A stretch of 64,000 nt of DNA from Candidatus Bathyarchaeota archaeon (GCA_029882515.1 JAOUKN010000001.1:5298-69297), one strand, 5' to 3'. Counted from the stretch's first letter, positions 1 to 28,028 are shown. Notes: generated by a model from the sequence alone, not told the origin. Made by a program: numbers and translations.

Positions 1-237
1 AGTGTCCTGATGATTGCCAGCACGATCTCCCGAACAACCTACATCAACGGGATCGCTTTGTCGACTGATCTAACTCCATCGCTCGCTATGGGGCAAACGA
101 TGGATCACGTCGCTGCTGTCATCTTGCCATTAACCGGCGGAATACTTTGGGGAATCATTGGGTATGAAGCAACATTCTTTATCGGTATAGCAGTAGCAAC
201 ATGTCTGCTTTTGACTGCACAAAAAATCCAATTATGA
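1..237 (+). CDS. C-terminal end of a polytopic membrane (transporter-like) protein, 5' truncated by the window edge
   Basis: Frame 1 is open from nt 1 to the stop at 235-237. Two hydrophobic helices (AAVILPLTGGILWGIIGY, FFIGIAVATCLLL). Family cannot be named from 78 aa. Confidence 0.4.
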   Translation, partial: SVLMIASTISRTTYINGIALSTDLTPSLAMGQTMDHVAAVILPLTGGILWGIIGYEATFFIGIAVATCLLLTAQKIQL

Positions 238-254
238 TGTTAGGCGCGAATAAT

Positions 255-401
255 CAGATAGAAGTCCACGATGTGATATTTGGCGATTGTGGAAATGATG
301 AATGGTTCTGCATAGTGGTTGGTTCACCTGATGCTGAAAACCTGATTGAAGCTGGCTTTGAGTTCGTTGATGAAATAAATGATAAGCACTTGTTCCCGTT
401 T
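255..401 (+). pseudogene. Remnant of the C-terminal extension of an archaeal tyrosine-recombinase/integrase-type protein (..DEWFCIVVGSPDAENLIEAGFEFVDEINDKHLF..)
   Basis: It lies inside track ORF 201..566. It matches the pattern I recall from archaeal integrase C-termini (DDEF.CKVA.T..EA..LIEAGFEYV....G.KLFRKRK). No catalytic domain lies upstream, the usual RKRK end is missing, and the frame runs straight into the (CG)4 tract at 402-409. Confidence 0.45.
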
Positions 402-421
402 GCGCGCGCCGTGTATGTGCG
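401..421. repeat. (CG)4 tract plus alternating Pu-Py extension (tGCGCGCGC|cgtgtatgtgcg)
   Basis: Read directly. Pure CG at 402-409. It lies 20 nt downstream of the stop of the minus-strand gene 429..881. Confidence 0.9.
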
Positions 422-428
422 AATGGTA

Positions 429-881
429 CTATTCGGTTTCTTTAACCTTCGGAAATCTTGTCAAAATTTTCTGAATGAATTTATCTTCGAAGTCCCATGC
501 TTCGAGTATGTCTGTTACTTCCTCCATGAGTTCTTCTTTTGTGTATTTCTCCAGTTTCCCAGTTAATTCGTCGAGCGCAAGTCCACAGGCGTACAAATGA
601 ATTCCTTTCTCGCTGGGGGAGATTACAACGTGTATCCCTGATCTTTGGGCTGCTCGGACGTACTTGTCTAGCCCTAGGGGAGACAGCAATGCCTTGGTCA
701 TCAAGGGCACAAGTGCACCTTCTCCTGCAAAAACTGTTGTCTGCCCTTCTTTGGTCGACTCTTCTTTCGTGATTTTTAAGCCCATGCCCTTCAGAACTTC
801 GTGGCAAACTTTAACCACTTCATCAACAGTCGCATTACTAATGAGCAACTTTTTCTCAAAGCAAACAGACATCAATGACAC
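429..881 (-). CDS. Hypothetical protein, 150 aa
   Basis: Track ORF with a soluble-looking sequence. Overlapping ORFs in other frames look like antisense artefacts. No family recognised. Confidence 0.55.
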   Translation of the reverse strand: MSLMSVCFEKKLLISNATVDEVVKVCHEVLKGMGLKITKEESTKEGQTTVFAGEGALVPLMTKALLSPLGLDKYVRAAQRSGIHVVISPSEKGIHLYACGLALDELTGKLEKYTKEELMEEVTDILEAWDFEDKFIQKILTRFPKVKETE

Positions 882-931
882 CGTATTCCTTTCAATTCTT
901 CCAGCTTATTTATCTTTTCTAGTGAGTTAAC

Positions 932-966
932 TGCACGCGCTGGCAAGTCTGCGGGCATGCGCGTGC
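932..966. repeat. Inverted repeat of alternating tracts: GCACGCGC (933-940) / GCGCGTGC (959-966), 18-nt spacer
   Basis: The arms are exact 8-nt reverse complements. The repeat lies 48 nt downstream of the stop of 1014..2096(-) and 52 nt upstream of the start of 429..881(-). Confidence 0.85.
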
Positions 967-1013
967 TGCAAACATTTCCTCGAGAAAACACTACTATGAC
1001 TAGGCGTGCTCGT

Positions 1014-2096
1014 TCACTTCTTAAGCTTGGCCAGATAGAAATACCGTACTTGTCTTCCGTTTTCTATTTTCTCCAGCGTCCGCTTGGCATCCTGTGCTCT
1101 GTCTTCATAGATGTCGGCGTTGCCTTCTTTGGCGAAGAGTTCTTTCAGTTCTTCAGCGGCTTCTATTTCACGGATCCATATCCCTCTGCTGCTGGCCGTG
1201 TAGTCAACTGTCTCATAAGCTAAACCATTGTTACTCAGAGCTGCGCCGACTTTCGAGCTTTGCGGAAGTAGAACATCCCGAGACTCATCAGGGTCGCAGC
1301 TCTGGCCATAGAAGATGGCCAATCTGCCGTTTATTGGTTTCAGAAGGCTCCTCAGTTTCTCTATTGTCGCATCGATGTTCTCAACGAAGTACAGTGTGTC
1401 TATCGAAATTATGGCGTCGAAACTCTGCTCTTGAAATGACAAATCGTCCATGTCGCCCACCACATAGGTTAAGCGGTCTTTCTTGTCGACTGTTCGCTGC
1501 TGTGCTCTCTTGATCACTTCAGGGGCAAAGTCAAGTCCGACCATTTTGGCACCTGTGAGGTCGGATATGTATTCGGTTATTCTTCCGTTCCCGCATCCCA
1601 AATCCAGAGCAACTTCACTGGGCTTCAGTTCCAACTTTTCTATCAAAGTGTTCAGCTGCTCCATGTCGAGCACGTTGTATTGGGATAGGTCTTTGCCGAA
1701 GACACGCTGGCAGAACATTGAATACGCTTTGCTGGTCTCGGTTCTTGACAAAAGATTGTCGTAGCCTTTGCTCATCCTTTCCTTCCTGCATTTTCTGCCG
1801 AGTTTCTTCCCGACATCCGACAGGAAGTAGCAGTCTGCCCTTTTCATGACCAATCCTATCTTCAGCAATTGCCGTAGAGAAGTGGCCGTTTTCTTGGCTT
1901 CTAGCGTTGCGCCGTCACTCAGGAATGATTTTATGCCCTCGACAGTGGGTCTGACTCGTCTGCCGTCAGGGAAAACGTACTCGCCTGAGGCTTCCAATCT
2001 GCGACTACTTTCGAACGCTGACAACACCGCCAAAACTTTCTTCTCCAAGTCTGGCATATCAGAAAAGGAATCTACAGTTGCTGTGTTTTCCGGCAT
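1014..2096 (-). CDS. Class I SAM-dependent methyltransferase with an N-terminal wHTH-like region
   Basis: Motif I VALDLGCGNGRITEYI, post-I acidic LDFAPE, and AIISIDTLYF. 360 aa. Confidence 0.8.
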   Translation of the reverse strand: MPENTATVDSFSDMPDLEKKVLAVLSAFESSRRLEASGEYVFPDGRRVRPTVEGIKSFLSDGATLEAKKTATSLRQLLKIGLVMKRADCYFLSDVGKKLGRKCRKERMSKGYDNLLSRTETSKAYSMFCQRVFGKDLSQYNVLDMEQLNTLIEKLELKPSEVALDLGCGNGRITEYISDLTGAKMVGLDFAPEVIKRAQQRTVDKKDRLTYVVGDMDDLSFQEQSFDAIISIDTLYFVENIDATIEKLRSLLKPINGRLAIFYGQSCDPDESRDVLLPQSSKVGAALSNNGLAYETVDYTASSRGIWIREIEAAEELKELFAKEGNADIYEDRAQDAKRTLEKIENGRQVRYFYLAKLKK

Positions 2097-2184
2097 AAGC
2101 AGACGCTCTACGCAAAATTACATAATCGATCAAATAAGTTTGCCGAATCGTCTTTCACGGACACGCCTATTTTCAAAGCCCCCA

Positions 2185-2195
2185 ATGCGCGCGCG
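2185..2195. repeat. (CG)4.5 tract (atGCGCGCGCG)
   Basis: Read directly. It lies 91 nt upstream of the start of 1014..2096(-). Confidence 0.9.
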
Positions 2196-2222
2196 ATTAT
2201 GCCTGCACACGTAAGGCTTAAG

Positions 2223-2238
2223 TATGACGTACGTCATA
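2223..2238. promoter_or_regulatory. Perfect 16-bp palindrome TATGACGTACGTCATA (operator-like)
   Basis: Read directly. Same half-sites (ATGAC-N4-GTCAT) as the two sites at 40724-40761. Confidence 0.6.
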
Positions 2239-2289
2239 ATTTATCTCTTGGATCGTTTTCCGAGACTGTTAAGGAGACATGCAGGCACG

Positions 2290-2412
2290 ATGTTGAAGAA
2301 TGAGGAAACTGAGAAACCGAGATATGTTGCAGCTGTTGGATTGCTGATTTTCTATGGTCTTTTGGCCTTTTCCATGATCTATGTAGTACTAAGAATTTCA
2401 GGGATATCATAA
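2290..2412 (+). CDS. Possible small membrane protein (40 aa from the internal ATG; track ORF starts at 2224)
   Basis: MLKNEETEKPRYVAAVGLLIFYGLLAFSMIYVVLRISGIS has one clear TM helix. AAGGAG lies about 15 nt upstream. Short and unverified. Confidence 0.25.
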   Translation: MLKNEETEKPRYVAAVGLLIFYGLLAFSMIYVVLRISGIS

Positions 2413-2505
2413 ATACACGTATGCGTTTTGTGACCGTTGTTGTTTTTTGTAAGGCATGTTTCTGAGTTTTTGCTATGTTGAAACCGTATGCTCTTAATAT
2501 AGGGA

Positions 2506-2520
2506 ACACGCGCGCGTATG
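2506..2520. repeat. (CG)4 tract within a 15-nt perfect alternating Pu-Py run (acaCGCGCGCGtatg)
   Basis: Read directly. It directly abuts the second integrase-type remnant. Confidence 0.9.
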
Positions 2521-2521
2521 A

Positions 2522-2620
2522 ATAGCCACCAAACTAGATGAAATTAAGGAGTTCCTTGAAGCTGGCTTTGATTTCGTCTGTCAAAAAGACGACCTAACGT
2601 ACTTCAGAAAACGCAAATAA
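2522..2620 (+). pseudogene. Second remnant of the integrase-type C-terminal module (IATKLDEIKEFLEAGFDFVCQKDDLTYFRKRK*)
   Basis: Hand translation. It is open only from the stop at 2519-2521, has no start codon, and ends in the typical ..FRKRK*. It shares ttgaagctggctttga.ttcgt with the copy at 346-368. Confidence 0.45.
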
Positions 2621-2642
2621 TATTCGTAGTATACTGGAAAAA

Positions 2643-4343
2643 CTATGGGTATCTGGCCTTTTTCTCGAATTGCTGCTCATAAATCTCTTTGACTTTTTGG
2701 ATGGTGTCAGCTTCCGCTGGGCTCTTATCGTCGCGAATCCGTGTAATTCTGGCAAATCGCAGTGCCATTCCACACTTGTATTTCGGACTTTTTTGTATCT
2801 CGTTGTAAGCTACTTCCACCACAATTTTGGGAACCACAACAACTCGTCCATGCTCTTCTTTCACAGCCGATTCCTTGAGTCGTTTTGTCATGCCAATAAT
2901 CTCAGTATCAGTCAACCCCTTGAACGTCTTCCCAACCATCAGCAACTCCCCACTCTCTGAGTCCCTAGCCGCTAGATAATAATCGGAAAGCCAGCCATGT
3001 CGTCTCCCATACCCCCATTCGGCGGCCACAACCACCAAGTCTAACGGCTCCAAGGTTCTCTTGATCTTGAACCAACGTTTTCCCCTAACTCCCGGAGTGT
3101 AACGGCTGTCCAATTTTTTCGCCATCAGCCCTTCATGTCCTCGACTCATGGCTTCTCTGAGAAACCGTTCAGCCTCTGCACGGTCATTAGTTATCACTTG
3201 CTTGGTTAAGGAAATATCTCCGCTGATTGCTTTCAATTTTCTTCGGCGTTCTACGTAAGGATCGGTGATTAAACTCGCTTCGTCAAGATAGAGCAGATCA
3301 AAGAGGTAAAGTTGAATCGGAATTTGCTTGGTCATTTCCTCAATATTGTGGACTCTTCGGAATCGTCGCATTAAATGCTGGAACAGCATGGGACTTCCAT
3401 CCTTCCCGACCGCTATAACCTCACCCTCCAGTATGGCTTCACGCGCCCCTATCTGATCACGCACCAACTGAACAACCTCAGGCAAGCTCTCGGTCACATC
3501 TGTCAATCTGCGACTGTACACCTTCACTTTGTCACCTGATTTGTGAATTTGAATCCGCGCGCCATCGAGCTTGTCCTCAAAAGCTGATTCCCCTCCATGC
3601 CCTCTTAAAGCCTCATCTACATCTGCCGCCATCTGAGCCATCATCGGTCTAATAGGTCGAAAAAGCTGGAATCGGATACTCAAAACGCCTTCCTTCCCCT
3701 GCACTTTCGCTATTGCCGCAACTTCGCTAACATCACCAGCCAGCATACTAGCCCTTTGCACAACGTCCAATGGAATTTGAAAAGCTTCAGAGACGGCGAG
3801 TTCCATCATGCCCTCAAAAAATCCTGTCCGCATCTCACCAATCAAAATCTTGACAAGGTACTTCGCTTCCAATGAAGTAGCTACCCCTAACAGAGTTTCC
3901 AGCAGACGTTCTTTCCGTTCTCGAGAACCAGACCCTGTCGTCTCAGCAATGACCGCTAATCTCCGCCTCACCTCCAGAATAGTCAAGGCCTTTTCAAAGA
4001 GCGTAACCTGTTTTCGAATTTTCCCTCCCTTCTCCAAAATGATCTTCGTTGCCGCCCCAACGTCACCCGTATGACTGAACGCTTCTCTAAACTCCTTCCA
4101 GTCAACATTCGCCAACCGTTTGATCACACCGCGTAAGGTCGCCCAACTCACTTCCAGTGTTCTTTGATCCCATTTTGGGAATGCGCGGCCAAGAATCATA
4201 GAGGTTGCAGGTTCCACCTCGTCGGCCTGTACTTTTTTCAGAAAGTCCGCCACTAAGTCTCTCATTAGCAGACGTTTTGATGTGCCTTCTAGTTTTTCGC
4301 AAAGTTCAGCTAGCGTTCGGAACTCTGTTGGCATAGTTGACAC
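2643..4343 (-). CDS. lig: ATP-dependent DNA ligase
   Basis: Adenylation motif I KLDGARIQIH, EGLMAK, and an archaeal-type DNA-binding N-domain. 566 aa. Confidence 0.95.
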   Translation of the reverse strand: MSTMPTEFRTLAELCEKLEGTSKRLLMRDLVADFLKKVQADEVEPATSMILGRAFPKWDQRTLEVSWATLRGVIKRLANVDWKEFREAFSHTGDVGAATKIILEKGGKIRKQVTLFEKALTILEVRRRLAVIAETTGSGSRERKERLLETLLGVATSLEAKYLVKILIGEMRTGFFEGMMELAVSEAFQIPLDVVQRASMLAGDVSEVAAIAKVQGKEGVLSIRFQLFRPIRPMMAQMAADVDEALRGHGGESAFEDKLDGARIQIHKSGDKVKVYSRRLTDVTESLPEVVQLVRDQIGAREAILEGEVIAVGKDGSPMLFQHLMRRFRRVHNIEEMTKQIPIQLYLFDLLYLDEASLITDPYVERRRKLKAISGDISLTKQVITNDRAEAERFLREAMSRGHEGLMAKKLDSRYTPGVRGKRWFKIKRTLEPLDLVVVAAEWGYGRRHGWLSDYYLAARDSESGELLMVGKTFKGLTDTEIIGMTKRLKESAVKEEHGRVVVVPKIVVEVAYNEIQKSPKYKCGMALRFARITRIRDDKSPAEADTIQKVKEIYEQQFEKKARYP

Positions 4344-4408
4344 TGTCTGGTTGGGAATTTATACAAATTTCCCTTTTCTATGCCTGTTATTCTGGTAAAA
4401 TGAGTGTG

Positions 4409-5059
4409 CTACTTTCCGAAGAACGTTTTTGCCCTGATCAAGTCTTTCATAGTGTTGATAGTTAGCCACATACCATCGTATACGTATCCTAGAAGTATTC
4501 TCTTATCGGCTAATATCTGCATCGTTGAAAATTCAAAGTCCCCTTCGTCTGGGAAGTGTCTCTCCACAATTTTCCTTTTGAAAACGTGGTGCCCCGCACT
4601 GACATAGAACTCTAGCGTTGGATTCCTTTCAAATCGAATCACATTTCTGTCATTTTGAAGAGTAACCTTTCCAAAGGGCAATATTGGCTTGGCGAGCAAC
4701 ACCGCTGCTCCCTTGCCGGCATAGTCAAAAAGTTCTTTTGGATTATAAAATACAAGATCGTCTACATTCATGACGTACGCGATGTTTCCTTTAATCTTTT
4801 GAAATGCTCTCTTGGTTGCTCCTCCCGTTCCTAGCTTGTTCGTCTCGACTGAGTATTCTACGTCAAGGGTTGTGAGTCCATCTTTGTCTGATGCTACAAT
4901 GATGTTTTGGAATCCACGGGTTTTAAGCCATGATATCTGTTTGTCCAACAAGGTTTCCTTATTAATCTTCAATAGAGGTTTCGGTGTCCATGTTTCTGGT
5001 TTGAGTCTCCACCCTTCGCCACCAGCCAGGATTATTGCCTCATTCATTCGTATCACCAT
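4409..5059 (-). CDS. Sugar-phosphate nucleotidyltransferase (NTP_transferase family)
   Basis: N-terminal ILAGGEGWRLKP (GGxGxRL) signature. I place the start at MVIRMNEAII (5059) or MNEAII (5047). The track ORF extends to 5200. Confidence 0.75.
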   Translation of the reverse strand: MVIRMNEAIILAGGEGWRLKPETWTPKPLLKINKETLLDKQISWLKTRGFQNIIVASDKDGLTTLDVEYSVETNKLGTGGATKRAFQKIKGNIAYVMNVDDLVFYNPKELFDYAGKGAAVLLAKPILPFGKVTLQNDRNVIRFERNPTLEFYVSAGHHVFKRKIVERHFPDEGDFEFSTMQILADKRILLGYVYDGMWLTINTMKDLIRAKTFFGK

Positions 5060-5203
5060 CACACCGTTGAGTTTTTGACGCGATGTTTGCGAGTAGACCC
5101 TATTGCCATTTCCTTTATAAGAATTTAGCTTGAGGAGGCGGTGATATCTCCTGCAATCCGAAATCTTACTTCCGATTTCTACTTTCTCCAAGAAACACAA
5201 AGG

Positions 5204-5212
5204 GCGCGCGTA
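5204..5212. repeat. (CG)3.5 tract (GCGCGCGta)
   Basis: Read directly. It lies 38 nt downstream of the stop of 5248..5931(-). The context agggcgcgcgta is also seen at 13351. Confidence 0.9.
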
Positions 5213-5247
5213 GTTATAGCCAAAATAGCCAGTAAGTTAGTTGACTT

Positions 5248-5931
5248 CTAGATCCATTTAATCGTGGGTTTGACGTAACTTTTATGTTGATCCATCCAGC
5301 GCTTTTCAGGGGCGTCCTTTGGATAGCCAAGCAGGATAGGCCCGTATATTCGTTCACCATCCGTTAGCTCAAGGGCTTGTACGATATCAGCATGGCCTTT
5401 GACCATTGCACCGAATCCTGTATAACAGCTGCCAAGACCGAGAGCGCATGCGGCAAGCATGATGTTCTCGCAGGCAAGCGCGCAACTCACTGCATTACTA
5501 ATTGGGCCTATGATAAAGAGGATGACAGGTGCACCATGGTAAATCATGTCTTTGGGTTCGGGCATCGCCTCATAGAGCTTCATTGCTTTCTCGTAGATTT
5601 CAGGGTCCGTCTCCTTCATGCTTTCAGTCATCTTTTTCCAGATCGGAAGCGCGGTCTGCAAGAGTTTTTGCTTGAACTCTGGGTCCTCAACAACTACAAA
5701 CCGCCACGGCTGAAAACGAAGGACTCCTTTCACCATGCCCATGGTTGAAGGGGCCTGATTGCCAGCCTCGATGATCGTATTGATGACATCCCTCGGAATT
5801 GGTTTAGGCTCATAAGACCTGACCGATCGTCGCTTATGCATAGCTTCAATTACTGGGTTCATCATTAACTTCACTGTCAGGAGGCTAAGACCGGATAGCA
5901 ATAAAAGCGTTCTGATCCGTATTTTGTGCAT
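5248..5931 (-). CDS. Nitroreductase family protein
   Basis: HKRRSVRSYEPKPIP..IIEAGNQAPS signature. The start may be the internal MMNPV (about 5862). Confidence 0.85.
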   Translation of the reverse strand: MHKIRIRTLLLLSGLSLLTVKLMMNPVIEAMHKRRSVRSYEPKPIPRDVINTIIEAGNQAPSTMGMVKGVLRFQPWRFVVVEDPEFKQKLLQTALPIWKKMTESMKETDPEIYEKAMKLYEAMPEPKDMIYHGAPVILFIIGPISNAVSCALACENIMLAACALGLGSCYTGFGAMVKGHADIVQALELTDGERIYGPILLGYPKDAPEKRWMDQHKSYVKPTIKWI

Positions 5932-5969
5932 ACAATCGCTTTCATTTGGACATCCTTCCTTATTTTTGG

Positions 5970-5982
5970 ATGTGCGCGCGCG
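5970..5982. repeat. (CG)4.5 tract in a 13-nt alternating run (atgtGCGCGCGCG)
   Basis: Read directly. It lies in the divergent intergenic region between 5248..5931(-) and 6131..7213(+). Confidence 0.9.
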
Positions 5983-6130
5983 ACATCGATGTCCCTAAAT
6001 ACTCTAGAGACTGTGATCTTAACTGCTCCAATGTTCCAAAGTAGATTGTCCGAGACTCTTTGCAGATGATGCATGCACGCATGATTTATATGTTTAAGTA
6101 ACAATTGCTGTAAATAAAGGGAAAAATGCT

Positions 6131-7213
6131 TTGAATATATTTTTACTAATTATTGTATCTATAACAGGATTTTTTTTGCTTCTCTATATCGGGTTATTAC
6201 TGTATAAGAACTATTTGAGAAATTCGACTAGAATAGAGACATCTAATGGCATAAGTTCATTGGAGGAGATTACCCTTGGTGATTTAAAACAATGGATATT
6301 TATCAGAAGTACAGATCAAAATAATCCAGTTTTGTTATTTTTGCATGGTGGTCCTGGTGCGCCTTTGTTGGGGATGTCAAGTTCGCGTAAATATGATGCT
6401 GAGTTAATTAAGCATTTTACAGTAGTTCATTGGGATCAACGAGGGGCGGGTAAATCATTTAGTGATGATATTCCAATTGATTCAATGACTTTGGATAGAT
6501 TTGTTGAGGACTGTAATGAGTTAATAGATTATTTACGAAATAGATTTCTCACTCAAAAAATCTTTTTAGTTGCTCATTCAGGGGGCACGGTAATTGGAAT
6601 TAAAACTGCACAAAGATATCCGGAGAAAATTCATGCTTATGTTGGAGTGGCGCAAGTTATAAACGAATATGAACAACAAAAAGTTTCATACAAGTTTATA
6701 GTTGAAAAAGCTGAAAAATCTGAAGATTCAGGAAGACAAAATGCTATAAAAGCAATAGGACCACCACCTTATGAATCACCGAAAAAATTCTTAAAAATGT
6801 CTGGGTATGTTGCTAAATATGGAGGACTCTTGCATAGTAAGTCTATGATGGATATGATAATTATAGCGTTAGACTTCTTAACTTCGCCTGAATATTCATT
6901 ATTAGAAGGAATTAGAACATTCAGAAATAAAGGATTTGATTTTACTATTAATGCAATGTGGGAGGAATTGAAAAATGTCAATCTTACAAAAGAAATTCAA
7001 TCTATTAAAGTCCCCATATACTTCTTTGAAGGAAAATACGATGTGGCTACTCCCACAGTTGTTGTTGAGAAATTTTATGACAATTTAGATGCTGAAAAAG
7101 GTAAAAAGCTATTCATTTTTGAAAATTCAGGGCATATGCCAATGATGGAAGAAAAAGAGAGATACGAGGAATTATTGATAAATGTTGTTTTGAAAGATAA
7201 TCTGAATAAATAA
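6131..7213 (+). CDS. Alpha/beta hydrolase, proline-iminopeptidase-like (S33), with N-terminal TM anchor
   Basis: LFLHGGPGAP, DQRGAGKS and the nucleophile elbow VAHSGGT. The gene is markedly more AT-rich than its neighbours. Confidence 0.85.
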   Translation: MNIFLLIIVSITGFFLLLYIGLLLYKNYLRNSTRIETSNGISSLEEITLGDLKQWIFIRSTDQNNPVLLFLHGGPGAPLLGMSSSRKYDAELIKHFTVVHWDQRGAGKSFSDDIPIDSMTLDRFVEDCNELIDYLRNRFLTQKIFLVAHSGGTVIGIKTAQRYPEKIHAYVGVAQVINEYEQQKVSYKFIVEKAEKSEDSGRQNAIKAIGPPPYESPKKFLKMSGYVAKYGGLLHSKSMMDMIIIALDFLTSPEYSLLEGIRTFRNKGFDFTINAMWEELKNVNLTKEIQSIKVPIYFFEGKYDVATPTVVVEKFYDNLDAEKGKKLFIFENSGHMPMMEEKERYEELLINVVLKDNLNK

Positions 7214-7518
7214 TAAACTCAAAAATGAAAGCGATTAATTATGACAAATAGGATCACATAGACCGGCATGATCAATTTGCTAGAAGAAGTAGATTCTGTC
7301 CAAATTGTAGAAGGATGAAGAGCGCTTTAGATGAGGCATTTGAAAGGAAACGCTAACACCTGAAAGAAGAATTCCAAGAATAAAAGTTGGAAAAAGACGA
7401 ACTCTTGAAGCGTTGATTAATGAAGAAGTTTTATTGCTGGCAAAATATCAAGAGATGAGTGTGATAAATGGGCTTTCAGAATTGTGAACATTGACTAGAT
7501 ATCCGTTAACCTTCCTGA

Positions 7519-7884
7519 TTAGACCCAGTTCCATGCATACCAAACAGTCAGTACATTAAACCCAAGTCCTACAATTATCAAAAATTTGTCATAAGCTCCA
7601 GGGTAACCAGGCAATCCAATGAGATTAAAACCAAGCAAGAATATGGCTACAATGATGTTTACCCAGCGAATCAAAGGATAGGTCAACGTTAGGGACAAGA
7701 AAAGCATCACAATCGGAATCAGCATTAATATTGCCATTAACATCAACATTGTCTGCGTCAGTTGCTTACCTCCCACTTGCCCCGCTGTAAAGTCACCGGC
7801 AAATATTCGCAGCACATCCCCCAAAAGATAAACTAACATTAAAGCTACCCACAATCCTGAAAGGATTATTCTCACATCGTCCAT
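7519..7884 (-). CDS. Small polytopic membrane protein (DUF6326-like)
   Basis: 121 aa with four predicted TM helices. The N-terminus LSGLWVALMLVYLLGDVLRIF resembles that family. Confidence 0.55.
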   Translation of the reverse strand: MDDVRIILSGLWVALMLVYLLGDVLRIFAGDFTAGQVGGKQLTQTMLMLMAILMLIPIVMLFLSLTLTYPLIRWVNIIVAIFLLGFNLIGLPGYPGAYDKFLIIVGLGFNVLTVWYAWNWV

Positions 7885-7957
7885 AATTCAATCACATCCG
7901 TTGGACAATTGTCCTTGCTTAATATTTCAGGTTTGGGTTTGGGGGTTAAGATTTAAT

Positions 7958-7973
7958 CCAACCAACCAACCAA
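7958..7973. repeat. (CCAA)4 microsatellite
   Basis: Read directly, in an intergenic region. Confidence 0.9.
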
Positions 7974-8125
7974 GGCACGGCTAACAGCTAAGCCAATCAC
8001 AGGCTAATAAACGACTGGCATGTCAACCTGTTTCTCCTGAACCACATACCACATAATAACCTTTGGTTAGCGCCTGAAAATTGAGATTTGGAATGGGAAA
8101 CTTGAGAGTAAGTATTTCCTTATTA

Positions 8126-8135
8126 ACGCGCGCGC
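8126..8135. repeat. (CG)4.5 tract (aCGCGCGCGC)
   Basis: Read directly. It ends 3 nt before the stop codon (8139-8141) of 8139..8927(-). Confidence 0.9.
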
Positions 8136-8138
8136 TTC

Positions 8139-8927
8139 TTACTGTGGACCTATTGTGGAGCCACCAGATGTATTGACATCGATCGTGGTGGGGTTCCCTG
8201 TGTATTTGAGGTGTGAGCCTCCGCTTACGTCACCATCTAATCTGCCATCAAGGTTTACTGTTGCGTGGCTTCCACCACCTAGGTTGACAGTGGTATCATG
8301 AACAGGGAAATCCGAGAGGTCCAAGTGGCTTCCGCCAGAAGCGCTGATGGTCAGGTCATTGGCTGCACCGTCCAGTCCAATCAAATGACTTCCTCCAGAC
8401 AGGGTAAATTGGGCATCTTCACTGGTCGTAAAGTCGCCACTGAGATAGCTACCTCCCGATAAGTCGACAGCATATTCATGCGAAGAGGTAAATCCTTCAA
8501 CGGTACCGTGTGTTCCTCCTGAAAGCTTCAACTCGTAAAGGTCAGGCATTGTGATTTCGGCTCTCAAGATTACATCTTGATAACTATAGCCCCATTTGAG
8601 ACCGATTGTCAGGGTATCTCCAGTCTGAGAAACCTCGATATAACCGAACATATTGTCGTCTGCCATTATGTTGATGCTATATGAATCTGCTTGGCCAATA
8701 TCAACCTCAAAACCCCATCCCACTTCAACAATCGTGAAATCAGTGAAGTCCTTCTCTTCGGTATCTAATGTTCCAGAACCGGCTACATGACCGAATGGTT
8801 TCCAAAATCCAAGTAAGACTGCCGATATCACTACGGCCACTACAGACCCTACTACAATAATGATTATCAAAGCAATGACCAGAGTGCTTATGGCATGCGT
8901 GTTTGTTTTCAACTGCTTTCTACTCAT
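8139..8927 (-). CDS. Membrane-anchored beta-rich protein, DUF2807/DUF4097-like (adhesin head GIN-type repeats)
   Basis: N-terminal TM helix followed by a reiterated SGGSHL/GGGSH periodicity. Confidence 0.55.
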   Translation of the reverse strand: MSRKQLKTNTHAISTLVIALIIIIVVGSVVAVVISAVLLGFWKPFGHVAGSGTLDTEEKDFTDFTIVEVGWGFEVDIGQADSYSINIMADDNMFGYIEVSQTGDTLTIGLKWGYSYQDVILRAEITMPDLYELKLSGGTHGTVEGFTSSHEYAVDLSGGSYLSGDFTTSEDAQFTLSGGSHLIGLDGAANDLTISASGGSHLDLSDFPVHDTTVNLGGGSHATVNLDGRLDGDVSGGSHLKYTGNPTTIDVNTSGGSTIGPQ

Positions 8928-9022
8928 CCTACATCACGCATTACGTATCCTGTTACAGTTTTTATGACTTGTGCAAGAATCTAAAAAGATCAGATTAAGT
9001 GTCCATTCTCAGTATTCTTCAT

Positions 9023-9031
9023 TGCACGCGC
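9023..9031. repeat. Alternating tract tGCACGCGC
   Basis: Read directly. It immediately abuts the stop of 9032..9712(-). Confidence 0.85.
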
Positions 9032-9712
9032 TCAGGTGAGATCGGTAAATATCAATTCTCTTCTATTCTTGCCAACCATTCTAATCGCACCCATTTTTCT
9101 GAGACAATAAGTCATCTTTCGTGTTAGGTAAAGGGGGATTCCTGTTAGATCTGCAAGGCTTCGGTTAGTGAATGGTCTTTCAAGGTCATTTGGCAAAAAT
9201 CTGCGAAAATCAACTTCATCCTTCAGAAAAACTCTATCCCTGACATCAATCAATTTTCTGTCTTTAATGCTTACTCCCCTTCTTCTCCAGCTTCCCTTGC
9301 CATCGTTACATCTTATCTCTTCTTCCTCAATCATCAAAACGTCCAACGAAAAATTCTCTCTAGCAATCAGATTAGGGATACTCACTAGCTCATAGAATAG
9401 ATCAACCAGCTTTCTCTTTCTCGGAGACTTTCTCTTACTTATTAATTCGCTTGACTCTGTAGTTCGAACTATCCATTTCCTCTCTGGAATGGGATACACT
9501 AGTCGGACTTCATGATTTTCAACCAAACTTGAAAGTTTCCTTTTAATAGCCCGAAAACTCTTGGTTTGAACTTCAATCAGAAGACTTCCCCTTAAAATGT
9601 CAATGATGAACCCATCTATCCTAGCCTCAAATCTGTCTTCTGGAAGTGAATACCACTCTTTGATCGCTGAATGAAGTAAATGTTCGTTCATTATTCCCCG
9701 AATAGATGACAT
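9032..9712 (-). CDS. PD-(D/E)xK nuclease-like protein with a C-terminal wHTH-like domain
   Basis: IDGFIIDIL..LLIEVQTKSF resembles a D..ExK core. The basic C-terminal part is helix-rich. Family not named. Confidence 0.45.
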   Translation of the reverse strand: MSSIRGIMNEHLLHSAIKEWYSLPEDRFEARIDGFIIDILRGSLLIEVQTKSFRAIKRKLSSLVENHEVRLVYPIPERKWIVRTTESSELISKRKSPRKRKLVDLFYELVSIPNLIARENFSLDVLMIEEEEIRCNDGKGSWRRRGVSIKDRKLIDVRDRVFLKDEVDFRRFLPNDLERPFTNRSLADLTGIPLYLTRKMTYCLRKMGAIRMVGKNRRELIFTDLT

Positions 9713-9891
9713 GGGATAATAGCATTGTTAACACTAAGGAATATACATCAAAAGGTATTGGCGCGTGCCTTTCACTTCCAAGAACTCTGCAGTAGAACCG
9801 ATCTGATACTAAAGATTTGGGAAAGAATCCTCTACCCAAACCAAAAAAAGGGAGTTGTGCGGGAGACATCTCCACATGCCTTTGGTTTATT

Positions 9892-9905
9892 TGCGCGCGC
9901 GTGTA
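9892..9905. repeat. (CG)4.5 tract in a 14-nt alternating run (tGCGCGCGCGtgta)
   Basis: Read directly. It lies 51-64 nt downstream of the stop of 9956..10375(-). Confidence 0.9.
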
Positions 9906-9931
9906 GTATTCTGGACTCGCTTAGAGGAGAG

Positions 9932-9956
9932 GTGCGTGCGCATAGTATGTGTGCAT
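9932..9956. repeat. Two alternating Pu-Py runs (gtgcgtgcgcata, tatgtgtgcat)
   Basis: Read directly. They directly abut the stop of 9956..10375(-). Confidence 0.85.
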
Positions 9957-10375
9957 TAAGGAGGAGTTGGCGTTCCCGGCTGTAAGTTAAGGTTTTCAAC
10001 ATATCCGTCTATCGTGTATGCTCCGTCCGCCGCGTATTCCTTGTGAAAAGGAATATAGAGGTATTGGTAATTATCGTTCCACCCTGTGCAATCGCCAGAA
10101 TCCCAAACTATAGTTCCGCTATGGGAACCTGTTCTAAGCGCTAGCCTAAACGTTGAGCCAATTTTCGTGACAGTAACGTAATAGGTGGTTCCCACATCCA
10201 TATAGATGCCTGTAAACCTGCTTGATGCCGCAAAGCTATCAACGTCATTATGCAATGCCATAAACGTGACATAGTATTTTGTGTCATCGCTTGGCTTTTT
10301 CATAATGTAATAGAAAAGTCTGTCATCATGATGCGGATATGGATGGTCATTCGAGACAGCATAAGGAAACACCAT
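9956..10375 (-). CDS. Hypothetical beta-rich protein, 139 aa
   Basis: Track ORF with an aromatic- and Gly-rich sequence. No family recognised. Confidence 0.5.
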   Translation of the reverse strand: MVFPYAVSNDHPYPHHDDRLFYYIMKKPSDDTKYYVTFMALHNDVDSFAASSRFTGIYMDVGTTYYVTVTKIGSTFRLALRTGSHSGTIVWDSGDCTGWNDNYQYLYIPFHKEYAADGAYTIDGYVENLNLQPGTPTPP

Positions 10376-10402
10376 AAGGCTATATAGAGCAGGGTCGTTT
10401 CC

Positions 10403-10433
10403 TGCGCGCGCGCGGATCCTTCTTCGCGCGCGC
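10403..10433. repeat. Paired tracts (CG)5.5 and (CG)4.5 separated by gatccttctt; potential 9-bp all-GC hairpin
   Basis: GCGCGCGCGCG at 10404-10414 and CGCGCGCGC at 10425-10433. They lie between the stop of 10501..11469(-) and the start of 9956..10375(-). Confidence 0.9.
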
Positions 10434-10494
10434 CAAGTGTATTAGTCCATGTTGAAATTTGTGCGGGCGCATCTTGAAGACGCCTTGGGGGTTC

Positions 10495-10500
10495 CGCGCG
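10495..10500. repeat. (CG)3 tract
   Basis: CGCGCG directly abuts the stop codon (10501-10503) of the ArsR-like gene. Confidence 0.85.
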
Positions 10501-11469
10501 TTACTGAAATCTTTCAGATACAAGATCCCCTAGCAGAGTTAATTTCCCTTGCTTTGTTAAACCCATACGTTCAAATTTTGGGATCAATTCCTTTTCGTTG
10601 GTATATTTGCGCGCCTGTCCCATAGCGATTCCCTTTAGGGCATCAATGGCTTTAGGTCTCCCTTTTATCCATTTGTAGAGCTCTTCAACCTTGCTCGCAC
10701 GAGTAGGTGCTCTTTCCCAATAGTATTGGAATAAATCCTCACACCATGTGTGTGCTCTTTCATCTGTGGCTGTGAACCCAAGATAGTCAAATTTTTCATC
10801 TGGGAGTGGGAAGGCGACCCCTGCTACTTCTCTCTCCGACATGGAAAGGAATACGTCTAGCCGCTCTAATATCCTCTCTTCCAGAAAATCTGCAATCCTA
10901 GCTCTATCAAAGGCCTCCCTGTCGTCAGGGAGATAATGATAGCGGTAATAGTCAATAGGCTCTATGTTTCTTACGCTCACCTTCCGTTCAACTGCTTCTC
11001 TGAATAAGGGGATAGTGTTAACGAGGTATTGATCAGCAATTGTCCAGATATACTCCTCCGCCTCACGCATCATCTTCTCAATGTCATAAAAAGCGACCAT
11101 AATGTTATCTGTACGGTGTGCATCTGCCAATTCACCTATTCTACACAAAAACTGAGAAGGAACATGAGCCAGAGTGTGGGAAGTGAAATAGTCATTGTGC
11201 TGCGATATGAATCTTAATCCCCCAAGTTGTTTCAAGACAACTTCGCCATAAAAGGTCACATGATGTAGACCTTCAACGTCCTTCTGAGTTAATCCAACAT
11301 CGCTTAATCGGGAAACGTGTCTGCTTGTCTCTTGAGTAGTGAGATCCAACGCCTTTGAGAGACGTGTGACATTCATTGCCTTCTTGTCCAATTGATAGAG
11401 TATTCTAAGTCGGTCCTCGTTTGAGAGCTCGAACAACAAGTTACAGAACTTCTCCAACACAAACACCAA
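10501..11469 (-). CDS. ArsR-type wHTH transcriptional regulator with a large C-terminal domain
   Basis: NEDRLRILYQLDKKAMNVTRLSKALDLTTQETSRHVSRLSDVGL is a typical HTH_20/ArsR pattern. 322 aa. Confidence 0.75.
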   Translation of the reverse strand: MVFVLEKFCNLLFELSNEDRLRILYQLDKKAMNVTRLSKALDLTTQETSRHVSRLSDVGLTQKDVEGLHHVTFYGEVVLKQLGGLRFISQHNDYFTSHTLAHVPSQFLCRIGELADAHRTDNIMVAFYDIEKMMREAEEYIWTIADQYLVNTIPLFREAVERKVSVRNIEPIDYYRYHYLPDDREAFDRARIADFLEERILERLDVFLSMSEREVAGVAFPLPDEKFDYLGFTATDERAHTWCEDLFQYYWERAPTRASKVEELYKWIKGRPKAIDALKGIAMGQARKYTNEKELIPKFERMGLTKQGKLTLLGDLVSERFQ

Positions 11470-11871
11470 CTATTGATCAATCTTGAATTTCCTCGGCGAT
11501 ACTAACATTCCCACATTGTTCTTAACTTCCTCTATCAGATATTAATGTTCCCAAACTCTTCTTGCGGAGACTTTATCACAAAAGTCTTGGATGTTTGATA
11601 GTAGGTGAAGAAAAATGGGAAATGGAAAAATGAGTTTGAACAGATTGAAAATACAGAAGGTGCTTCGATTGGTTGGAATGAACGGAGGTTTTGAGCAGTC
11701 ATCGGGTCTCCAACAACAAGTTGTTCATGGAGGCGTCTCTTCAGGCAACTATCACAACAATTGGAAGGAAATCGAAGCTGCTTCATTAGAAGCAGAATAC
11801 AATAAAGCGAAAGCACTAATGGAACTGCAGAAACGATTTATCTGTTAAAAGTCGCCACTGTCACAGAAAAA

Positions 11872-11882
11872 ACACACGCGCG
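11872..11882. repeat. Alternating run acacaCGCGCG
   Basis: Read directly. It lies 18 nt upstream of ORF 11900..12145. Confidence 0.85.
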
Positions 11883-11899
11883 AAATTGCGGATGAAAAA

Positions 11900-12145
11900 A
11901 TGGAACACACATTCTCTATAGAGATCAGGTCAAGGATGCATGTCAAGTCAATAGAATACTGTTGCTCAAGCAAGTCCAACGACCGGGTGTTGTTCGAGGG
12001 ATCTCTAGGTAAACTGGAAGAACTATCCATGGTCGAAGGCAAGGTTCTGGAGATAAAGGGTACAAATGGGATACTGAGAATAGATCTTAGCGAGGACATG
12101 CTGTGTAAGATGCTCTCTCATACGCACCCGCGCGCGAGACTTTAA
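11900..12145 (+). CDS. Possible small beta-rich protein, 81 aa
   Basis: Track ORF. The sequence looks protein-like (VLFEGSLGKLEELSMVEGKVLEIKGTNGILRIDLSEDML). Its last codons (PRARL*) are encoded by the CG tract at 12129-12136. Confidence 0.3.
   Translation: MEHTFSIEIRSRMHVKSIEYCCSSKSNDRVLFEGSLGKLEELSMVEGKVLEIKGTNGILRIDLSEDMLCKMLSHTHPRARL
12129..12136. repeat. (CG)4 tract
   Basis: Read directly (cacCCGCGCGCGaga). Confidence 0.9.
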
Positions 12146-12300
12146 GTAGTTATTTAACGTTTCAAGCTATAGTATTTCAAATGAGAGAGAATTCCTATGA
12201 GAACAAAACCATGCAATCCCACGTTCTCAGTTCAAACGAGCAATATTTGGAATTGTCGATGGATAAATGTAAAAACACGGAAACACAGAACGAAGGGATT

Positions 12301-13203
12301 CTAGGATGCTTTACGAAGGAAGTTGGTGAGGATTGTCACTATCGTTTCGGGGCAATCTTCCTGTAACCAGTGGCTGGCGTCAGGCAACTCGTAGCTTTTC
12401 GTGCGAGGATACACTTTCTTCCACCAATCGAGTGTTCTTTTGGGAAAAATGGGGTCCTTCATTCCCCAGATTATGATTTTTTCTTTGTCCCTTAGGAGAT
12501 CCAAGTTCCGTTCAATTGAACGCATAGTCTTAGCGCTAGGATGGTCATCTCCGACTGGAATATCTCTCGGAAAAGCTATGGCTCCGATACAAGAAGCACG
12601 ATTCGGGAAAGGCGCTGTATAAGCACGAATCACAGTCTCACTTGGAGGTCCACTCACAAGGGTCGCTGCAAACATCCTTGGAATGAACGTCGCCATATTG
12701 CCGAGAACATCTTCGTAAATTCCTTTTTCTTCCATGTCAGAAATCCAAGTTTTTGCGCCTGCAGGTAAGACCCCTACCCCCGTATTCATAATTACCAACC
12801 GTTTTACCTTTTCAGGATGGGTGGTAGCAAAACCCAAGGATATAGGACCTCCCCAATCCTGACAGACCAGCGTGATATCTTTCAAATCCAATTCAAGGAG
12901 AAGTTTTCTGAAGTTGTCGATGTGTTGAGCCAAAATGTAAGGCTTATCTTGAGGAACATCACTTTTGCCAAAGCCCATATGGTCCGGAACTACTACACGG
13001 TTAAACTTGGATAAGGGTGTTATGAATTTTCGATATAAATAACCCCAAGTTGGTTCTCCATGAACACAAACCATGGGCTCCCCTTTTCCTTCATCAACAT
13101 AATGCATCTGAAAACCATTTATCTCTCTGAAGTTCGGCTTGAACGGAAACGTTCTATCAAAAGTCTCGTTACGAATATCCTCCTTCAAACAACCATTCTC
13201 CAC
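12301..13203 (-). CDS. Haloalkane dehalogenase-like alpha/beta hydrolase
   Basis: HGEPTWGYLYRKF and the nucleophile motif QDWGGPI. 300 aa. Confidence 0.85.
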   Translation of the reverse strand: MENGCLKEDIRNETFDRTFPFKPNFREINGFQMHYVDEGKGEPMVCVHGEPTWGYLYRKFITPLSKFNRVVVPDHMGFGKSDVPQDKPYILAQHIDNFRKLLLELDLKDITLVCQDWGGPISLGFATTHPEKVKRLVIMNTGVGVLPAGAKTWISDMEEKGIYEDVLGNMATFIPRMFAATLVSGPPSETVIRAYTAPFPNRASCIGAIAFPRDIPVGDDHPSAKTMRSIERNLDLLRDKEKIIIWGMKDPIFPKRTLDWWKKVYPRTKSYELPDASHWLQEDCPETIVTILTNFLRKAS

Positions 13204-13353
13204 ACACCCGTAACTGGTGCCTAGTTAAATCTCTTAGGTTTTCATTAGAGAGGAAAAATGAAGAGTTTGCGGGAGATAACCACACTCTATGTTGTGCGCA
13301 GATTAGTTTTGAACCCTACAGCATTCTTTTAACGTTGATTGTAATTCTTTAGG

Positions 13354-13363
13354 GCGCGCGTAT
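13354..13363. repeat. (CG)3.5 tract (GCGCGCGtat)
   Basis: Read directly. It lies 19 nt downstream of the stop of 13379..13642(-). Confidence 0.9.
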
Positions 13364-13378
13364 CAGTCACAAGAAATA

Positions 13379-13642
13379 TTAGAGCATCAGATCACTGATG
13401 GTGTGAAGGTGTTCGAGAAACTTCACGCCCTTCTGAGTGGTTGTATAAACTGTCTTCTCACCTTTCATGGTCTCCTGCAAGAGCCCAACGTCCAAAAGAA
13501 AAGCCATGTAGCCCTTCAACTGATCAAAACTCAAATTTGCCCCATACATAATGTGGGTCTTCAAGCACCCGTTCTTCGTCATCTCCAAAATCTCAGCCAT
13601 AATGTACGTTCGATTCCGGCGTTTATGCCCATCAGACACCAA
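13379..13642 (-). CDS. Small winged-helix DNA-binding protein (HTH_45-like)
   Basis: RTYIMAEILEMTKNGCLKTHIMYGANLSFDQLKGYMAFLLDVGLL. 87 aa, TTG/GTG start. Confidence 0.7.
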   Translation of the reverse strand: MVSDGHKRRNRTYIMAEILEMTKNGCLKTHIMYGANLSFDQLKGYMAFLLDVGLLQETMKGEKTVYTTTQKGVKFLEHLHTISDLML

Positions 13643-13683
13643 CTAGCTCTCCTGCAACACCATTCTGTAATTGTCTATGACAT

Positions 13684-13756
13684 TCTTAAGGAAGCGAATT
13701 CTAAAAAGGGGTACTCCTGCAACACTAATATTCTCCAAAGAAACTATTCGATTTGG
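13684..13756 (-). promoter_or_regulatory. 73-bp intergenic element, copy A (inverted relative to copy B at 32741-32813)
   Basis: Hand alignment gives 66/73 identical to 32741-32813. It ends 41 nt upstream of the start of 13379..13642(-). Confidence 0.7.
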
Positions 13757-13851
13757 TGCACAAAACAATGCGCACGCAGTCAAGCCAGTTCTCTATTCTG
13801 ATTCTTTTGGTGAAAAAGTGATAACGAAGCGCCCGCTTTCACCAATGGAAT

Positions 13852-14235
13852 TTAGAAGGCGGATGCTTTTTCCTTTAGCTCCTTTATCCTTTTCGTAAGT
13901 TCCGTCTGTTCCTTTTCTTTTCCTTGTGCTTTGTAACTGTCTAGAGCGTATTCGAGTGCACTGATGGCAAACCGGTCGAAGGCTTTCTTTAGGGCAAGGT
14001 CGGCTGCTTTGAGAAATCGTTCAGCGGCAGGGTCATACTCTTTAAGCAGATAGTTGCACTCCGCCGCCTTAAACAGAGCGTATGAAGCGTCGAAGTAGTT
14101 GCCTTCCTTTTCGTAGAGTTCGCTGGCCCTGAGAAATTTTTCCAACGCTTCATCATGTTTGCCAAGGTCAGAAAGGGCTGTGCCTTCCTTATGAATCTTG
14201 ATTGGGTCTTCTTTGGTTGGCTGCTCACTTTCCAT
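13852..14235 (-). CDS. TPR/SNAP-like helical repeat protein
   Basis: Repeating A..Y..A pattern (EALEKFLRASELYEKEGNYFDASYALFKAAECNY). 127 aa. Confidence 0.6.
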   Translation of the reverse strand: MESEQPTKEDPIKIHKEGTALSDLGKHDEALEKFLRASELYEKEGNYFDASYALFKAAECNYLLKEYDPAAERFLKAADLALKKAFDRFAISALEYALDSYKAQGKEKEQTELTKRIKELKEKASAF

Positions 14236-27905: not shown

Positions 27906-28028
27906 TTCTTATCCTTGTATGTTTATTAGGCGAAAAGGCTTTCTCTTCCTTGATAAGGCTAAATGGTTACTTTCTTTTGCGATAAATCTTGAATTCATCT
28001 CTTTCTGTAACATATTCAAACCCTGCTT

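Follow-up and report, generated by a model that had tools for sequence, protein, structure and literature searches.

Decayed integrase tails and alternating-CG tracts at truncation and deletion junctions around the DNA ligase gene of a Bathyarchaeia archaeon and in its relatives

In the SSV- and pNOB8-type elements of Sulfolobales and Thermococcales, decayed or partitioned integrase fragments border captured DNA in the chromosome, a process reportedly described by She and colleagues and referred to as "gene capture". Integrons, of which archaeal examples have been reported, combine an IntI recombinase and an attI site with arrays of attC cassettes, and alternating (CG)n repeats destabilize DNA, causing deletions in bacteria and, in mammalian cells, large ones. 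Here we analyze a 64,000-nt stretch of DNA from a Bathyarchaeia archaeon (the window; all coordinates without a contig name are counted from its first letter), in which three decayed tyrosine-recombinase (integrase) tails lie beside short (CG)n tracts, two of them close to lig, the gene for an ATP-dependent DNA ligase. Bathyarchaeia are uncultivated and very abundant sediment archaea, and what is at stake is how they join broken or foreign DNA. In the explanation that we consider probable, the lig region is a hot spot at which elements integrated and their integrases decayed, whereas the CG runs mark sites of illegitimate breakage and rejoining, where they likely represent filler.

The locus resembles gene capture in that integrase fragments in direct orientation bracket accessory genes at a reused site (a DarT/Macro pair in contig L001, a methyltransferase gene in the window) and in that an inactivated integrase traps the DNA. 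Here and below, L-numbers denote the loci or contigs and P-numbers the proteins (P0001, P0151, and P0152) that were compared; all sequences are metagenome assemblies from JGI, ENA, and NCBI metagenome-assembled genomes (MAGs). Unlike in gene capture, the targets are protein-coding, namely the 3′ end of lig and the 5′ end of ftr, the gene for formylmethanofuran-H4MPT formyltransferase, rather than tRNA genes. The points at which the integrase gene (int) is cut also vary, with no fixed attachment (att) position, and the cuts carry (CG)n. An SSV-type split integrase was rejected on the grounds that the cuts take at least seven positions, that no int(N) was found, and that host genes stand directly after the remnants, which end 13–35 nt from the host lig or overlap the host ftr where element DNA would be expected after an SSV-type int(C). 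No int(N) fragment was noticed in scans that covered the profile and motifs of the C-terminal region, not the N-terminal domains.

Two of the three fragments lie on the plus strand next to lig. The frame of copy 1 (201–566, +) reads ..GNDEWFCIVVGSPDAENLIEAGFEFVDEINDKHLFPF and then runs into GCGCGCGC at 402–409, a tract that lies 20 nt past the stop codon of a convergent 150-aa open reading frame (ORF); upstream, QIEVHDVIF (compare LIYTHLVNF) is a possible degenerate trace of the region around the catalytic Tyr. The frame of copy 2 (2522–2620, +) reads IATKLDEIKEFLEAGFDFVCQKDDLTYFRKRK up to a stop, and another stop codon precedes it. An earlier sequence-only reading had described these two plus-strand fragments as carriers of the same module, each cut at a (CG)4 tract, with copy 1 losing its RKRK end at 402–409 and copy 2 starting 5 nt after the tract at 2509–2516. 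Its statements about the sequence all hold, with the core shared by the two copies counted here as 21/22, and the pattern proved stronger than it had described. Copy 3, which is absent from that reading, was found by a six-frame motif scan of the window.

The shared core of copies 1 and 2, TTGAAGCTGGCTTTGA(G/T)TTCGT, occurs twice at a distance of 2210 nt and is the longest direct repeat within the first 14 kb (blastn-short E = 3.5e-4). Both copies use the same synonymous codons across the core, and its Ala codon, gct, is present in none of the relatives inspected. The core could represent a gene-conversion patch or an old crossover core or site. As a test for an att site, we looked for an integrase, inverted arms, and a duplicate of the lig 3′ end, and found none of these. 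We regard it as secure that the three fragments are nonfunctional 3′ remnants of tyrosine-recombinase genes left by integrative elements.

The module that the fragments share is the extreme C-terminal tail of archaeal tyrosine recombinases. When the three copies were combined into a profile, it matched 33 short proteins; a large share of them read ..LGHRSITSTLIYTHLV (box II plus the catalytic Tyr) and then NFEGDEYHTATSKSLKEDEELLKAGFEYVTERDGIKIYRKRK followed by a stop. An exhaustive HMMER search with a 128-aa relative retrieved full-length integrases of 376–435 aa, which carry an N-terminal zinc ribbon and whose last 128 residues align with the query. In one of these, the 427-aa P0152, the PF00589 domain stops at residue 384, and the remaining 43-residue tail is ..EEASKLIEAGFEYVCKIDNVQLFRKRK. 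Copy 1 matches residues 339–372, at the C terminus, of the full-length integrase P0151 (E = 1e-6, 44% over 34 aa). Copy 2 is 88% identical to P0001, a protein that extends upstream of the copy-2-like part into YLGHKKVESTLLYIQL (a continuation also printed as LGHKKVESTLLYIQL) and that aligns to residues 367–427 of P0152, and copy 3 shares 90% identity with the end of the remnant in L073. When the window copies were kept out of the profile, it still recovered copy 2 at E = 2e-13 and copy 3 at E = 3e-13; copy 1 was not among its matches at E ≤ 0.01.

As bare peptides, the window fragments matched no Pfam family, the PF00589 catalytic domain (R..K..HxxR..(H/W)..Y) included. Copies 2 and 3 begin past the Tyr position, and copy 1 has at most the degenerate trace. 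Judged by these alignments, the fragments are remnants of PF00589 family members rather than members themselves, homologous to the region right after the catalytic Tyr. The sequence-only reading had taken the module for a C-terminal extension of archaeal tyrosine recombinases and had seen no catalytic domain in either fragment. Both points are borne out, and the comparison of the peptides with archaeal integrases that it proposed places the module at its normal, extreme C-terminal position. The peptides are similar to recombinase C termini and do not belong to an unrelated family of small proteins, and the related genomes do not show the same arrangement with intact ORFs.

The 3′ end of lig is a conserved site at which such remnants recur. 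The window lig, whose best match is 84% identical, places the window in the Bathyarchaeia, and 68 related loci were available for comparison. Integrase remnants converge on lig and end 13–35 nt from its stop codon in L015 (92 aa), L013 (83 aa), L003 (73 aa), L009 (30 aa), and L007 (29 aa); frameshifted homology continues further upstream of the 92-aa remnant in L015, and the lig side of L005 gives a weak remnant match only. The lineage of copy 2 (..FVCQKDDL.YFRKRK) stands at lig in L003 and L007, and L013 has a tail related to it; the lineage of copy 1 (..GFEFVNDIDDKHIYRKRK) stands there in L009 and L015. Because two lineages occupy the same position in different genomes, elements must have landed at the lig 3′ end more than once; beside lig, the window has remnants of both. 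Copy 2 is orthologous to the longer or shorter remnants of L003, L007, and L013. In L004, which is the closest relative, lig lacks an integrase remnant.

These comparisons extend to other genomes the earlier suggestion of repeated events next to lig, and where that reading asked what related genomes hold at the site, the answer is remnants rather than intact ORFs. A second copy of the lig 3′ end, by which an attL could be defined, was not found, no tRNA genes are present in the window, and a scan of IMG/VR returned only two partial integrases.

A sister lineage, KAGFEYVTERDGIKIYRKRK, is found almost solely as remnants of 62–138 aa that lie directly upstream of, and overlap, the start of ftr; stop-riddled integrase homology runs on upstream of these remnants. 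L089 contains an intact integrase of this lineage (422 aa); behind it stand the first 35 codons of ftr in a second copy that ends in EDTFAEMW and a stop (1507–1614), an arrangement that looks like an attP bearing a replacement N-terminus for the host gene. This element carries a replacement end for the host gene, and its int reads outward into that gene. In L001 (5980–11055), two direct-orientation remnants enclose ~5 kb with DarT/Macro (a DarTG-type toxin–antitoxin or defence pair), small ORFs, and a gene for a cupin, an example of cargo trapped by integrase decay; the first remnant is followed by a displaced ftr 5′ fragment.

By analogy with the ftr elements, the lig 3′ end would have received elements whose int read outward, and the lig-side remnants would be the int ends that are left of them; copies 1 and 2 may bracket later accretions. 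With int at the edge of the element, reading outward into the host gene beside the attachment site, the tail next to that gene would be the last part to survive decay. Copy 2 would then occupy such a site at the lig 3′ end, which at least two integrase lineages used, copy 1 would be a second remnant displaced by 2.2 kb, and copy 3 a remnant elsewhere in the window.

Remnants were seen at the start of ftr in many Bathyarchaeia contigs (L001, L002, L072–L075, and L094–L096). In several of these contigs, the remnant is an open 128-aa C-terminal half (for example, L072 10001–10387 and L074 5233–5619; remnants of 128 aa were noted across the ftr start in L001, L002, and L072–75), and in others it measures 49–97 aa. 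The 128-aa frame has stayed open at 70–90% protein identity and could be needed as the ftr 5′ region or could have been domesticated. L013 also has a 151-aa integrase remnant with the same tail (13281–13853); a tRNA-Leu(GAG) gene of the other strand is 31 nt away, so that tRNA genes join lig and ftr as landing sites of a third kind in this family.

In part of the remnants, a CG tract coincides with the point of truncation. On the lig side, the cut falls at the codons for HTLRH in L015, ATMEYH in L013, DILYV in L003, IATK in the window, and QLVEAGF in L007; RLGH and LKAGF are further cut positions among the remnants, likewise with a (CG)4+ tract 0–10 nt away, which makes at least seven different ones in all. 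In L015, L003, L007, and the window, the point where homology ends is 0–10 nt from a (CG)4–4.5 tract, and the DNA beyond the tract is unrelated in each lig-side genome. Among 17 unbiased distinct remnants, seven show a perfect tract at the boundary or close to it (L015 and six others, the latter at a distance of no more than 20 nt). The tract density in the compared loci is ~1 per 16 kb (54 tracts in ~0.85 Mb), so that ~0.03 such coincidences would be expected. L097 was excluded from this count, as it had been chosen because its sequence predicted a tract; the additional unbiased look-ups L094 and L096 showed no tract at the boundary. The boundary tract is the sole tract in 12 kb of L001 and in 18 kb of L015. 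The first remnant of L001 and that of L097 are both cut at ..(CG)n followed by CTTGGACAT, and at this joint a parental AGCG or GCGC microhomology is possible (L001b reads cagcgattagga); none was found at the other junctions.

Tracts also occur at junctions of genes other than integrases. The window segment 968–2181, which contains a gene for an S-adenosylmethionine (SAM)-dependent methyltransferase (MTase), is 80–84% identical to DNA of L076–L079, and the homology ends 2 nt from GCATGCGCGTGC (955–966) and 6 nt from GCGCGCGCG (2187–2195). In L076–L078, the MTase gene converges on a GNAT acetyltransferase gene (160 aa in L077), of which L079 shows the 3′ end only and the window retains just the last ~10 codons, truncated at the 955–966 tract; these GNAT donor loci, L076–78, have no tract at the cut point. 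In L056 (CP070791.1, 8146–8160), ATGCGCGCGCGCGCG stands in place of ~70–84 nt of the lig coding region and shifts the frame, and none of the seven orthologues in an eight-sequence alignment has a CG run at this deletion. In L016 (10440–10560), ~65 codons of a gene for a Na/Ca-exchanger-like membrane protein are replaced by (CG)5, leaving halves in different frames.

Further junctions of this kind are an ftr 5′ fragment (IDDTFAEMFP) that ends at a tract in L009, and three tracts with 75- and 39-nt inserts in L012, where the corresponding gap of L007 is short and has no tract; mini-mosaics are present in L012 and L097. In L056, in L016, and in the window MTase segment relative to L076–78, the joined sequences are contiguous or unrelated in relatives and the joint contains extra nucleotides that neither parent has, as would be expected of an end-joining scar. 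The earlier link between CG tracts and DNA breakage and rejoining thus gains from the varying cut codons with a tract in relatives as well as from these non-integrase junctions.

The tracts are far more frequent in the window than its composition predicts, with CGCGCGCG present 11 times and GCGCGCGC 10 times versus 0.20 and 0.17 in dinucleotide-preserving shuffles. Although 82% of the window is taken up by ORFs, only one of the 11 tracts of at least 8 nt falls inside an ORF, and the histogram of tract lengths has a shoulder at 8–11 nt above a geometric decay. By eye, without a formal motif search, the printed contexts of about twenty tracts showed no common flanking motif. The ~13 kb of nonsyntenic DNA around lig contains 14 of the 19 tracts of the window. 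The upstream neighbor of lig in relatives is a homologue of 13852–14235, and the genes of 4344–13851, like everything left of lig, have no homologues in the 68 lig loci; the sole match of this island is a weak one, to a nitroreductase in L002, an unrelated ftr locus. Island tracts (at 5204, 5974, 8127, 9893, 10404, 10425, 10495, 11877, 12129, and 13354) fill nearly every gap between the accessory genes (nitroreductase, hydrolases, DUFs, and an HTH regulator), and the inter-tract segments range from 35 to 48% GC. An analogous layout is found in L007, which reads tract, ORF, tract, ORF, tract, int remnant, lig.

Two other alternating palindromic motifs, CATGCATG and GCATGCAT, are 2–2.7-fold over-represented in loci with GC ≤ 0.52. 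Their sites include L013 ~9970, L015 ~10050, and L009 ~10800, one of them at the integrase-remnant boundary of L013. Near-expected counts were obtained for six further GC-rich 8-mers and for alternating CA/TG and AT repeats.

Our preferred explanation for these junctions is that the (CG)4–6 tracts are joints of illegitimate rejoining after the loss of DNA or the capture of foreign DNA. Each joint would bear 8–13 nt of self-complementary alternating CG, most likely filler added at broken ends that then pair together. A tract may later break and heal again, which would explain the nested truncations. The scar interpretation is favored because the cuts are arbitrary, the partners unrelated, and deleted coding sequence replaced by tracts, and because of the mini-mosaics; the lack of a parental CG run at the cut (lig alignment, GNAT donor loci) favors tracts made during joining. 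The sequences show what the module is, that the site is conserved, and that tracts coincide with truncation and deletion junctions, also in genes other than integrases; that joining produces the tracts rather than resulting from them, and by which enzyme, we infer.

End joining with filler is similar in that deletions span tens of bases to kilobases with few extra nucleotides at the joint, in that the events are tolerated mainly in dispensable DNA, and in that the junction sequence could pair end to end. It differs in that the joint here is always (CG)4–6 whatever the flanks, usually without parental microhomology, and we know of no report of a fixed alternating dinucleotide inserted at end-joining junctions. 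An archaeal primase performs microhomology-mediated end joining and has terminal-transferase activity (PMC12019639), and such primase-driven end joining is a precedent for the general chemistry (PMC12019639; also PMC12281630). Literature searches returned no report of a CG-specific filler and nothing relevant on CG tracts or integrases in Bathyarchaeia.

A more specific form of this explanation, which we offer tentatively and would not call likely, is a dedicated pathway of end healing and DNA capture in Bathyarchaeia. Broken ends would be extended with a short self-complementary (CG)n tail, so that any ends could pair and be ligated, each event leaving an 8–13-nt scar, and flexible islands such as the 13 kb around lig would be stitched from arbitrary pieces. 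An enzyme of the primase or PrimPol type, for instance, could synthesize the tail reiteratively or without a template, and the scars may be fragile in turn and repeatedly re-healed.

Several observations weigh against reading the tracts as scars of rejoining. About half of the remnants have no boundary tract (L002, L009, L034, L072–75, L094, and L096), indicating that tracts are not obligatory, and L013 and L001b have imperfect alternating tracts only (GCATGCATGC and GCGCACGCG). Beyond the window, the enrichment of the 8-mers is modest (83 observed in all non-window loci versus 22.6 expected under a first-order Markov model), and homology breakpoints coincide with tracts in 15 cases versus 9.7 expected, which is not clearly significant in a crude test that takes ends of high-scoring segment pairs as breakpoints and is diluted by homology fading through divergence. 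The L056 tract lies 146 nt from a 100-N scaffold gap that replaces the 5′ part of lig, so that this case calls for caution: L056, a "complete" Bathyarchaeota MAG chromosome, contains either a lig pseudogene or population variant, or an unreliable assembly at this point. An intact lig-targeting element that would define the att core at lig was not found. The tracts as a whole are known from assemblies, static sequences cannot separate cause from product, and we know of no enzyme that adds alternating CG.

The order of events could also be reversed. In this alternative, which we judge unlikely but worth serious weight, the CG tracts came first as intergenic fragile sites prone to Z-DNA or cruciform formation, and one-sided resection ate into their neighbors, so that the tract is the cause. 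With at least 8 nt of strictly alternating CG or purine–pyrimidine sequence, the tracts are Z-DNA-prone, and Wang, Christensen, and Vasquez are said to have identified Z-DNA-forming repeats as deletion hot spots in 2006. Fragile sites would fit a tract that stays constant while the lig-side remnant shrinks from 92 to 29 aa (L015, L003, window, L007), the extension of many tracts into longer alternating purine–pyrimidine runs, the 2–2.7-fold enrichment of the related motif GCATGCAT, and the location of some tracts between intact syntenic genes with no rearrangement (L010, L019, and L027).

However, none of the seven aligned orthologues contains a CG run in or beside the stretch deleted from the L056 lig (L016 was not aligned to orthologues), and the GNAT donor genes of L076–78 have none at their cut. 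Both flanks of the tract also differ among relatives, and the accumulation of one tract per intergenic gap in the island would be left unexplained. Known instability of Z-DNA and CG repeats is comparable in that alternating CG or longer purine–pyrimidine runs coincide with deletion end points. In the known cases, though, the repeat pre-exists and is shortened or lost, whereas here the junction retains or newly gains it, and instead of being selected against it is abundant.

A third possibility, and in our estimation a quite improbable one, is that the tracts are recombination or target sites of cassette insertion, either integron-like or through a transposase- or Cas1-like integrase that duplicates an 8–9-bp CG target. 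Such a system would account for the single-gene or short inserts separated by tracts 5′ of an integrase remnant (window 2187–2516; L007, L097, and L012), for the integron-like topology in which the integrase is transcribed away from the array, and for the narrow length mode of 8–9 nt, which is typical of target-site duplications. The resemblance to integrons extends to mostly single-gene units with short palindromic separators. Unlike in integrons, however, the separators are bare CG runs of 8–11 nt with no attC-type structure or length (60–140 bp), and the unit ends are arbitrary, cutting through genes (GNAT, int, ftr, lig, and the transporter). Neither attC sites nor a functional IntI was found: an Rfam scan of 1–14500 gave no match, and the integrases adjacent to tracts are all fragments, dead in every case.

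Cassette insertion is further contradicted by a 9.5-kb island without any integrase remnant, by the lack of conserved flanking arms in about twenty tracts inspected by eye (with no formal motif search run), and by MTase homologues elsewhere that mostly lack flanking tracts, and a target duplication cannot yield tract-filled internal deletions. A CG tract acting as an att core was rejected, as the tracts share no flanks and also occur in the integrase-free island. Least probable of all, and barely credible to us, is that there was no biological rearrangement and the tracts are assembly or sequencing artefacts or an intergenic regulatory motif beside pseudogene fragments: the data are all metagenome assemblies, the key case L056 is close to a scaffold gap, and the tracts are almost exclusively intergenic, but the pattern recurs in independent projects (JGI, ENA, and NCBI MAGs), the sole tract in 12–18 kb sits exactly at the homology boundary (L001, L015), the flanks have no common motif, some tracts interrupt coding sequence with frameshifts, and tracts of 8–13 nt, being shorter than usual assembler k-mers, should not produce chimeric joins.

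The CG junction signature appears to be undescribed, and the integrase part is ordinary. Integrase remnants alone are routine, yet they reveal that mobile elements of Bathyarchaeia land repeatedly at the ends of two genes, lig and ftr. If the tracts are indeed scars of joining, alternating CG would be a sequence tag with which every illegitimate recombination event in a genome could be dated and mapped, it would account for islands of accessory genes built without dedicated recombinases, and the end-joining chemistry would be one not described in any domain of life.

Table 1. Positions of integrase remnants, junction tracts, and neighboring features in the window
Feature	Position	Strand	Remarks
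Integrase remnant copy 1	255..401	+	C-terminal tail only; 3′-truncated, RKRK-stop missing
Junction tract GCGCGCGC	402..409		In place of the RKRK-stop end of copy 1
Shared 22-nt core	346..367 and 2556..2577	+	21/22 identical; encodes (I/L)EAGF(E/D)FV
ORF, 150 aa	429..881	-	No significant Pfam family; no homologue in 68 lig loci; one patchwork segment
Alternating purine–pyrimidine tract GCATGCGCGTGC	955..966		Junction at the start of the apparently transplanted MTase segment
GNAT acetyltransferase fragment	968..1000	+	Last ~10 codons (KHFLEKTLL-stop); intact (160 aa) beside MTase in L077
SAM-dependent methyltransferase gene (MTase)	1014..2096	-	N-terminal region with sub-threshold winged-helix matches only
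Junction tract GCGCGCGCG	2187..2195		6 nt past the end of the MTase-segment homology
Hydrophobic ORF, 62 aa	2224..2412	+	In a 313-nt, 39% GC segment between two tracts
Junction tract CGCGCGCG	2509..2516		5 nt upstream of copy 2
Integrase remnant copy 2	2522..2620	+	5′-truncated; natural stop retained, 22 nt from lig stop
ATP-dependent DNA ligase gene (lig)	2643..4343	-	Core gene; 3′ end is a conserved landing site of integrase-bearing elements
Nonsyntenic 9.5 kb	4344..13851		Between lig and its conserved upstream neighbor 13852..14235; patchwork of 35–47% GC segments separated by CG tracts
Integrase remnant copy 3	27967..28032	-	LKAGFEYVTERDEFKIYRKRK-stop; ftr-associated lineage; first codon abuts CGCGCGCG (28033–28040)

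The region 402–2516 was also considered as one mobile cassette, an idea that we rejected: the MTase gene is the only gene shared among 13 metagenome loci, most of which have no flanking tracts. In L081 (1527–3840), unlike in the other twelve, the MTase homologue has tracts ~130 nt upstream and ~320 nt and 1.1 kb downstream.

At copy 3, the tract at 28033–40 doubles, in a different frame, as the last codons (SRAR and stop) of an upstream 384-aa ORF. This ORF (28029–29183, −) has a signal-peptide-like start, a C-terminal membrane anchor, and no significant Pfam family. A phase-variable fusion of the ORF with copy 3 was considered, as losing one CG unit would bring the two in frame; it is disfavored by the resemblance of the ORF to a membrane-anchored surface protein and by the match of the tract to the junction pattern.

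Within the island, three tracts of 11, 9, and 6 nt are clustered in the 97 nt from 10404 to 10500, spaced 10 and 61 nt apart, and the first two could pair as the stem of a hairpin.

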